Part shown: positions 1,820-2,089 of the stretch, one piece after another
Numbering within the stretch: the first letter of the stretch is position 1
Layout: each line of letters begins with the position of its first letter
The notes under the pieces: model-generated
What the model was told of the DNA's origin: nothing
Databases searched by the model: none
Seen by the model: the letters and a program-made list of their open reading frames with translations, nothing else
Position numbers and translations under genes: made by a program
IMG/VR virus record: IMGVR_UViG_3300046170_000302
Strand: one strand, 5' to 3'
DNA length: 64,000 bases
Origin: a virus
Lineage: Duplodnaviria > Caudoviricetes

Positions 1820-1849
1820 TTGACATAAATAGTGTAGAAGTGTTATAAT
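1820..1849 (+). promoter_or_regulatory. Sigma70-like promoter overlapping a late-promoter motif
   Basis: TTGACA 1820-1825, 18-bp spacer, extended TGnTATAAT 1841-1849; ATAAATA at 1825-1831. Confidence 0.8.
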
Positions 1850-1856
1850 AACACTG

Positions 1857-1903
1857 TCGTTCATCAGAGGTAACTCTGACGCAAGTAAGTTGACTCGGAA
1901 CGG
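1857..1903 (+). ncRNA. glnA (glutamine riboswitch class I)-like motif, unit 1
   Basis: CGTTC (1858-62) pairs with GAACG (1898-1902); hairpin TCAGAG-GTAA-CTCTGA (1864-79); followed by CGCAAGTAAG, resembling the glnA pattern CGUUCAUC..GACGGAAGUA..GAAGGAACG as I recall it. Confidence 0.55.
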
Positions 1904-1904
1904 A

Positions 1905-2089
1905 GCGTTCATCCTATGGTTGATTTCTTTTTATATACAACACTCAGTTGTTCTGATGCCGATAGCATTATGCTACGGATGAGGAGTAATGATGATCTTA
2001 ACGCATCAAGTTAGGATTGAATTGGTGGAGGTTCTAAAAGAATCTACACCAGAGTGTCCATGGGACGCAAAAGGCAACTGAAGGAACGG
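1905..2089 (+). ncRNA. glnA-like motif, unit 2, with a 138-nt loop inside P2
   Basis: CGTTCA-TCCTATGG (1906-1919) ... CCATGGGA-CGCAAAAGGCAACTGAAGGAACG (2058-2088); 8-bp P2 (one G-U) and 5-bp P1. Confidence 0.5.
1916..2081 (+). CDS. Small (~54 aa) cyanophage protein nested in the RNA motif, with an apparent 1-nt insertion near 2007
   Basis: GGAG 1902-1905 then ATG 1916; removing one base gives MVDFFLYTTLSCSDADSIMLRMRSNDDLNAQVRIELVEVLKESTPECPWDAKGN, TGA 2079-2081. Confidence 0.55.

Follow-up and report, generated by a model that had tools for sequence, protein, structure and literature searches.

A putative nested double glutamine riboswitch with a gene in its hairpin loop in cyanophage genomes

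In a viral genome record (IMG/VR IMGVR_UViG_3300046170_000302, of which the 64,000-nucleotide stretch analysed here is called the window), the strands CGTTCA and GGAACG of a motif resembling the glnA riboswitch each occur twice behind a promoter, and a small open reading frame (ORF) lies between the parts of the second copy. How these strands pair with one another, which ligand they recognise and how a gene fits inside the RNA are the questions that this locus raises. The initial annotation had read positions 1857-2089 as two tandem units, the second of which wraps around a complete ORF. The window derives from a T4-like cyanomyovirus, and the relatives of the stretch are Synechococcus phages.

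The element lies between a glutaredoxin-like gene (1584-1817) on one side and small ORFs upstream of thyX and phoH on the other, within a small operon bounded by a sigma-70 promoter and an intrinsic terminator (2369-2395); this region is absent from the nearest record, G001. The promoter, the terminator, every RNA element described below and both the nested and the DUF4278 gene are on the plus strand. The promoter is as strong as had been noticed at first: TTGACA-18-TATAAT with an extended TG (1820-1849) agrees with the consensus at 12 of 12 positions just before the motifs. Transcription is predicted to start at about position 1856, immediately before the aptamer, and in relatives the -10 box likewise lies 7-8 nt ahead of the outer CGTTCA. 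An NtcA box of the form GTA-N8-TAC was not seen by eye at the window promoter. A perfect 8+8 inverted repeat, AGTGTTAT-A-ATAACACT (1839-1855), encloses the -10 box, and inverted repeats of 5-9 nt centred on the -10 box are present in 87 of 134 distinct upstream regions of the listed relatives, with arms that differ among them (for example GGTCTAT/ATAGACC); these repeats resemble the promoter-early stem-loop cassettes of T4-type phages. Late-promoter-like sequences (ATAAATA/CTAAATA) lie over the -35 box in the window (1823-1831) and in relatives such as L001, L004 and L011, and a late transcript would start upstream of the inverted repeat and bear a 5' hairpin just before the aptamer. Near the end of the operon, a 35-aa Lys-rich ORF (2254-2361), which has no match in Pfam or PHROG, overlaps the stop codon of the DUF4278 gene (ATGA) and ends just before the terminator.

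Pairing of the repeated strands

Two scans of IMG/VR with short conserved words gave at least 158 parsable loci, in which base pairs were counted by script; the partner-shuffle tests on these loci take no account of sequence relatedness. Direct reading places every motif of the initial annotation at its position. The first CGUUC, followed by A (1858-1863), and the last GAACG, followed by G2089 (2084-2089), form the two strands of the outer P1, 1858-1862 pairing with 2084-2088 according to both covariation and the fold of the window. The second and third strands form the inner P1 hairpin G-GAACG, loop GAG, CGUUC-A (1897-1911), in which GGAACG occupies 1897-1902, GAG 1903-1905 and CGTTCA 1906-1911, and which covaries in 12 listed loci. 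The order of the four strands is CGTTCA/GGAACG/CGTTCA/GGAACG in 135 of 158 listed loci, CGTTCA/GCAACG/CGTTGA/GGAACG in 10 and CGTTTA/GCAACG/CGTTGA/GAAACG in two (L124 and L156), and none of the 158 listed loci has a one-sided strand change. Only the pairing of the first strand with the last and of the second with the third leaves all pairs whole. The loci with variant P1 strands are scattered on the tree of the nested ORF and carry diverse ORF alleles.

The outer junction CGCAAGTA (1880-1887) consists of CGC, which provides the triplex strand and the long-range C in roles known from glutamine-II (PMC6698751), and of AAGUA, which aligns with the 5' half of loop E in RF01739. The pentamer behind the AAGUA of unit 1 can pair with the one ahead of the GAAGG of unit 2, so that the covarying helix P3 is formed by AGUUG (1888-1892) and CAACU (2075-2079) in the window; AGUCG/CGACU is the pair in most listed loci, and AGUCA/UGACU, AAUCG/CGAUU and AGACU/AGUCU also occur. 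As in RF01739, P3 is flanked by the two halves of loop E, AAGUA at 1883-1887 and GAA at 2080-2082, and P1 with CGUUC/GAACG closes the junction. The UGA stop codon of the nested ORF (2079-2081) lies within the 3' half of loop E, which is followed by G2083, and direct reading of 2080-2089 gives GAAGGAACGG as the 3' end of the element. Thus, the GAA that had been thought missing from unit 1 has its place at 2080-2082, and the tandem reading gives way to a nested pairing with a shared long-range P3 and its loop E; a pair of aptamers each closing on its own P1 does not fit the covariation, which fits nested pairing only.

The P3 loop of the outer aptamer is 182 nt long and houses the second core. 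This core comprises P1 (1898-1902/1906-1910) closed by the GAG loop, a P2 hairpin termed P2b, CGC (2066-2068) and the P3 that it shares with the outer fold. Its junction order is canonical (CGUUC-A, P2b, CGC, short junction, P3, G-GAACG, G), and it departs from the canonical arrangement in having an open P3 and a P1 capped by a loop. The inner junction, CGC and AAAAGG (2066-2074, with CGCA at 2066-2069), also encodes A-K-G, and CGCA[A/C]A is kept in 158 of 158 listed loci, those lacking an ORF included. The nested fold is the minimum-energy fold of three out of four compact aptamer domains and also the consensus that RNAalifold gives for eight compact loci. Judged from its sequence and those of its relatives, the leader appears to be a single type-I glutamine aptamer of canonical form, with a second, circularly permuted core in its P3 loop. 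A small covarying hairpin also follows right after the outer P1 (2090-2102 in the window; GGGCU..AUCCC, GGUUUUAAUUAACC and GGAAUUAACAUUCU across relatives), and its 5' strand begins at the long-range G.

The Rfam gathering cut-offs are 35 bits for RF01739 and 33 bits for RF01704, and a scan of the whole window at these thresholds gave no match. Unit 1 of the window reaches 29.4 bits with RF01739, under the cut-off, the model being unable to bridge the 182-nt insert; across the window and its relatives, unit 1 by itself has scores of 25-29 bits. For L117, a compact locus without an ORF, the same model gives 46.4 bits; its alignment is the nested one, joining the 5' half of unit 1 to the 3' half of unit 2 across a P3 insert of 41 nt. 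With RF01704, the window gives no match at E-values up to 10 and relatives give 26.4-28.1 bits, below the cut-off of 33, so that neither matches a glutamine-II model in which the 3' tail contributes a P2 helix. The element is missed by standard riboswitch searches because genes split the aptamer, and model-based scans should permit long loop inserts.

The gene in the second hairpin

The outer core has a P2 hairpin of its own, P2a (1864-1879), which in the window is a 6-bp stem with a GUAA loop (TCAGAG-GTAA-CTCTGA) by direct reading and covariation; among listed relatives, the mean P2a stem is 5.82 bp, against 2.70 with shuffled partners, and none of 2000 shuffles equalled it. P2b is formed by TCCTATGG (UCCUAUGG) at 1912-1919, which contains the start codon (1916-1918), and by CCATGGGA (CCAUGGGA) at 2058-2065, which also encodes P-W-D, both strands being identified by direct reading and covariation. 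This long-range stem, for which covariation among cyanophages had been proposed as one check, does covary across the 158 listed phage loci. Its positions 1-4 are paired in 99-100% of the distinct sequences through several pair types, and its mean length is 5.62 against 4.53 with shuffled partners, a value that none of 2000 shuffles reached. The pair types include UCCCA/UGGGA, CCCCA/UGGGG, UCCUAUG/CAUAGGA, UCUAUG/CAUAGA and UCCUC/GAGGA, and UCCGUC/GACGGA in an ORF-less locus. All three bases of the AUG are paired in only about 45% of listed loci. The peptide tracks the RNA, W-D becoming W-G, Q-D, E-D or I-D as the 5' strand of P2b changes, and the RNA-dictated tail DAND is common to unrelated peptide families. 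The ORF fills the hairpin loop of the second core in the way first described, with the start codon in the 5' strand and the last codons encoding the 3' strand and the junction.

As written in the window, the frame of ATG 1916 stops at 2014 after 32 aa, and the tail P-W-D-A-K-G-N-stop, which direct reading bears out with TGA at 2079-2081, belongs to a separate 30-aa frame (1989-2081); the span 1916-2081, at 166 nt, is one base longer than a continuous frame would be. Environmental contigs of the same phage, assembled independently from three DNA runs in three studies, are identical to 1700-2400 save that one base is absent at 2005, and a contig from an RNA library supports the reading without this base. 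Without it, the nested ORF (ORF-B, 1916-2081) encodes 54 aa with 61-65% identity to family members over the full length. Since independent contigs omit the extra base and the ORF is then a full-length family match, the base is private to this record; it is an error or a rare variant, and the phage population carries the intact gene. The ORF of about 54 aa in the initial annotation is therefore a family gene once base 2005 is dropped, but its frame in the window is broken into 32 and 30 aa. Other apparent frameshifts in the window record may have the same cause.

The nested ORF behaves as a gene among relatives. Its codon positions have entropies of 1.06/0.51/1.42, and the median dN/dS is 0.30. 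The annotated relatives S-SKS1, ACG-2014b and SynMITS9220M01 are laid out alike, and their ORF of 53-54 aa is intact and annotated as a 'hypothetical protein'. ORF-B belongs to the phrog_504 family, as does the nested ORF of the relative L028, which matches the profile with an E-value of 6.8e-23 over residues 1-53. The PHROG families of loop ORFs, to which no function is assigned, are phrog_504 and phrog_13397 in P2b and phrog_6471 in P2a, and the loop peptides have in common a hydrophobic N-terminus and two Cys about 35 positions apart. Profile comparison of the ORF families (best probability 69%) is too weak to establish that the two-Cys peptides share an ancestor. The AlphaFold2 model of the nested product is a helical hairpin (pLDDT 81.5), for which Foldseek against the PDB finds nothing below an E-value of 2.5. 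Pfam has no family for nested ORFs, and a search of the Atlas and 5.8 billion proteins with the nested ORF returns unnamed metagenomic relatives only.

Start and stop codons have nearly fixed places in the RNA. In 145 of 146 listed loci, the ATG follows CGTTCA at a distance of 3-5 nt, and the ORF stops at the U[G/A]A of CGACU[G/A]AAGG, within loop E, in 138 of 146 listed relatives; the last five codons of the nested ORF are set by the RNA core. GGAG, which the initial annotation had taken as the Shine-Dalgarno sequence of the ORF at the junction of the two units, is present at 1902-1905 and tracks the ORF, occurring in the inner loop of 137 of 148 listed ORF-bearing loci against one of 10 ORF-less ones (Fisher's test, 1e-8, uncorrected for relatedness). 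GGAG is likely to be the Shine-Dalgarno sequence of the nested ORF. ORF-sized inserts occupy P2b in 148 of 158 listed loci; in the 150 listed loci where P2a can also be located, both hairpins have inserts in 33, P2a alone in one and neither in nine. The P2a loop thus holds an ORF of 66-75 aa in 34 of 150 listed relatives. The start codon of these P2a ORFs pairs with CAU ahead of the stop, and for each of the stops TGA, TAA and TAG the 5' strand has a compensating change.

Ligand, output and rival explanations

The proposed regulated output is the gene at 2123-2257, which encodes a 44-aa, IF17-like DUF4278 protein with a double YRG motif (PF14105, E-value 1.8e-6, above the cut-off; phrog_5049), and a YRG protein is encoded downstream of the element in every parsed listed locus. 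The alignment with RF01739 and the match with PF14105 support the initial assignment of glutamine-riboswitch cores upstream of a DUF4278 gene.

The long-range pair is G23-C60 in type I (cited in PMC6212724) and C19:G41 in glutamine-II (PMC6698751), and the corresponding pairs here are C1882 with G2089 in the outer core and C2068 with G1903 in the inner core. The G after the outer P1 is present in 157 of 158 listed loci. The inner loop varies (GAG, GAGC, GAU, GUUC, GAA, GGUA and others), and its first base, equivalent to the glutamine-II partner of the C of CGC, is always G in listed loci. Glutamine is contacted by C1, G18, C19, C39 and G40 in the solved glutamine-II structure (PMC6698751), and the equivalents of all five are present in both cores. 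Among the core pairs only C5:G36 varies, as it does in glutamine-II; three listed loci have G:U in place of A6:C17. Therefore, CGC in place of CGG is a swapped long-range pair and not evidence for another ligand, and the earlier suggestion of a different ligand is not upheld, the glutamine-contacting nucleotides being kept in both cores. We infer that the leader senses glutamine with both of them. Glutamine-II RNA in two pieces still binds glutamine (PMC6698751), and altered strand connectivity is therefore plausible. The geometry of the 3-4-nt loop that closes the inner P1 may be strained, as its first G is needed for the long-range pair as well.

CUUCAG (2108-2113), whose consensus is CUU[C/U]AG, overlaps the Shine-Dalgarno sequence AGGAG (2112-2116) of the DUF4278 gene and, according to covariation and folds, can pair with CUGAAG at 2078-2083. 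The latter segment, CU[G/A]AAG, runs from the final two bases of P3 through the stop codon and the GAA of loop E to the next G. Stop codon and partner covary in listed loci: UAA occurs with U in 48 of 48, UGA with C in 77 and with U in 29, and A.C in none. When the Shine-Dalgarno region is included, minimum-energy folds shift to the CUGAAG/CUUCAG helix and self-pairing of unit 1. Glutamine in both cores would lock the nested fold, which would keep CUGAAG from CUUCAG and leave the Shine-Dalgarno sequence of the DUF4278 gene free (ON), while burying the Shine-Dalgarno sequence and AUG of the nested ORF (OFF). Without glutamine, CUGAAG would pair beside the DUF4278 Shine-Dalgarno sequence and the nested start would be exposed. 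The ON direction and the anti-ribosome-binding-site logic have been shown or proposed for gifB (PMC6212724). Ribosomes that reach the end of the nested ORF would open P2b and P3 as well as loop E, and it is plausible, as first suggested, that folding hides the nested ATG and that translation melts the fold. Ribosomes terminating within the anti-Shine-Dalgarno segment could turn DUF4278 on at any glutamine level.

A nested double glutamine riboswitch whose P2b loop carries a real gene and which switches in this way is the best explanation of the locus and is probably correct. There is also the possibility, held more tentatively and rather doubtful as a whole, of a two-site cooperative glutamine switch that sets opposite outputs on one mRNA, swaps strands between tandem-like and nested folds and is reset or blocked by ribosomes. 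The identical CGUUC/GAACG copies would permit a swap from a ligand-free, tandem-like fold to a ligand-bound, nested one and back, and glutamine would turn the IF17-like gene on and the loop-encoded genes for two-Cys peptides off. If this is true, one leader lets the phage sense nitrogen and translation status at once.

Two independent tandem aptamers would pair 1858-1862 with 1898-1902 and 1906-1910 with 2084-2088. The strands are identical and both pairings are possible in the window, the weak Rfam matches (unit 1 at 25-29 bits, unit 2 as glutamine-II at 28 bits) are in line with two units, and the unit-1 pairing appears in the minimum-energy fold that includes the Shine-Dalgarno region, which may be the ligand-free state. 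However, in 12 listed loci this pairing produces C.C, G.G, U.C or G.A mismatches where the nested one is perfect, it accounts for neither the covarying P3 nor the split loop E, and the nested alignment alone exceeds the Rfam cut-off, so that independent tandem aptamers are very unlikely. A ligand other than glutamine, as CGC instead of CGG might indicate, is hardly credible: the leader does depart from the type-I consensus and the Rfam score of the window is below the cut-off, but CGC with a G after GAACG is the arrangement of glutamine-II, which binds glutamine, and the downstream gene is the usual IF17-like one.

More weight attaches to the idea that only the outer aptamer binds glutamine and that the inner CGUUC/GAACG/CGC is a scaffold or a remnant of duplication. 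It is unlikely in view of the inner core bases, which are as conserved as the outer ones despite saturated synonymous sites (dS about 1.3) and whose sole change is a compensatory flip at a pair that also varies in glutamine-II; moreover, the first base of the inner loop is invariably G, and glutamine-II binds without loop E or P3. What speaks for it is that the inner core has no loop E and a P1 closed by a tight loop, and that binding by a permuted glutamine aptamer has no known precedent. The ORFs could instead be passengers, with the aptamer arms serving as recombination anchors for small-gene cassettes and translation uncoupled from the switch. Several unrelated-looking peptide families do occupy the same loop, ORF-less versions occur with the same downstream gene, and the scatter of aptamer variants on the ORF tree suggests mosaicism; even so, this is somewhat unlikely, since the positions of start and stop are too constant (ATG in 145 of 146 listed loci, stop in 138 of 146), the start codon in the first hairpin pairs with pre-stop bases and TGA/TAA/TAG changes are compensated, and the inner-loop GGAG tracks the presence of an ORF.

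Known glutamine riboswitches and distribution among cyanophages

The element preferred here, a nested double glutamine riboswitch, shares the parts of the three-way junction of type-I glnA RNA (RF01739), exemplified by the Synechocystis gifB leader (PMC6212724): P1 with CGUUC/GAACG, the P2 hairpin, CGN-AAGUA, P3 with loop E, and the long-range pair after P1. Like that leader, it lies upstream of a DUF4278/IF17-type gene and would likely act as a translational ON switch through release of a segment complementary to the ribosome-binding site. Unlike type I, its P3 loop of 182 nt contains a second core, its long-range pair is C:G rather than G:C, its hairpin loops hold whole genes, and the matches of the window are all below the Rfam cut-off. 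With glutamine-II (the Downstream-peptide motif, RF01704; 6QN3, PMC6698751), it has in common the core CGUUCA-hairpin-CGCA...GGAACGG and the C:G long-range pair; glutamine-II needs no loop E, as in the inner core here, and is found in marine picocyanobacteria, where it too lies ahead of YRG peptides. In glutamine-II, however, the CGUUC/GAACG helix is a pseudoknot and the P2 helix uses the 3' tail, whereas the inner helix here is circularly permuted into a hairpin with a loop of 3-4 nt.

Two cores for the same ligand in one leader also occur in tandem cooperative aptamers such as the glycine riboswitch and tandem glnA RNAs (PMC2864571), and by analogy a sharper response would be expected; unlike in those, one core lies inside the loop of the other and shares a helix with it rather than standing beside it. 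The glnA alignment of 2010 takes a phage-like scaffold as unit 1 only and the rest as flank (Weinberg 2010; PMC2864571). No description of nesting, permutation or loop-borne genes in glutamine riboswitches was found in the searchable literature, which does not include two key papers, and 'circularly permuted' was found there only as a term for genomes.

Group I and group II introns carry protein genes in peripheral loops of a structured RNA, with long-range stems around the gene. The host RNA here is a metabolite sensor and not a ribozyme, and the start, stop and last codons of the ORF belong to the sensor itself, unlike in these introns. The nested reading would mean that a natural aptamer tolerates circular permutation, nesting in its own copy and whole genes in its loops, and that the start codon, stop codon and C-terminal residues of the loop genes are dictated by the RNA fold. 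The element would tie host nitrogen status and the control of glutamine synthetase by IF17-like peptides to phage infection of the main phototrophs of the ocean.

A survey that found only two glutamine aptamers in cyanophage genomes concluded that riboswitches are rarely used by phages (McCown 2017; PMC5473149); Klähn 2018 does not mention phages. BLAST with the 71-nt core finds 414 phage records, all of cyanophages and with one copy per record. A scan of genome contigs with the 15-mer junction returned chance matches in unrelated bacteria. A conserved additional segment of the form AACGGAUCC-hairpin-GAGAAGGUUAA, or alternatively ACUCGGAUCAC-hairpin-UUAAAGGAG, separates the outer P1 from the anti-Shine-Dalgarno partner in L024, L040, L043, L116, L117 and some 15 more loci, and may be another structured module. 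A variant of the stem, GATTATGG...CCATAATC behind the second CGTTCA, is present in L148 and L161, where the ORF is longer or fused, its frame running from the ATG through the usual span without a stop.
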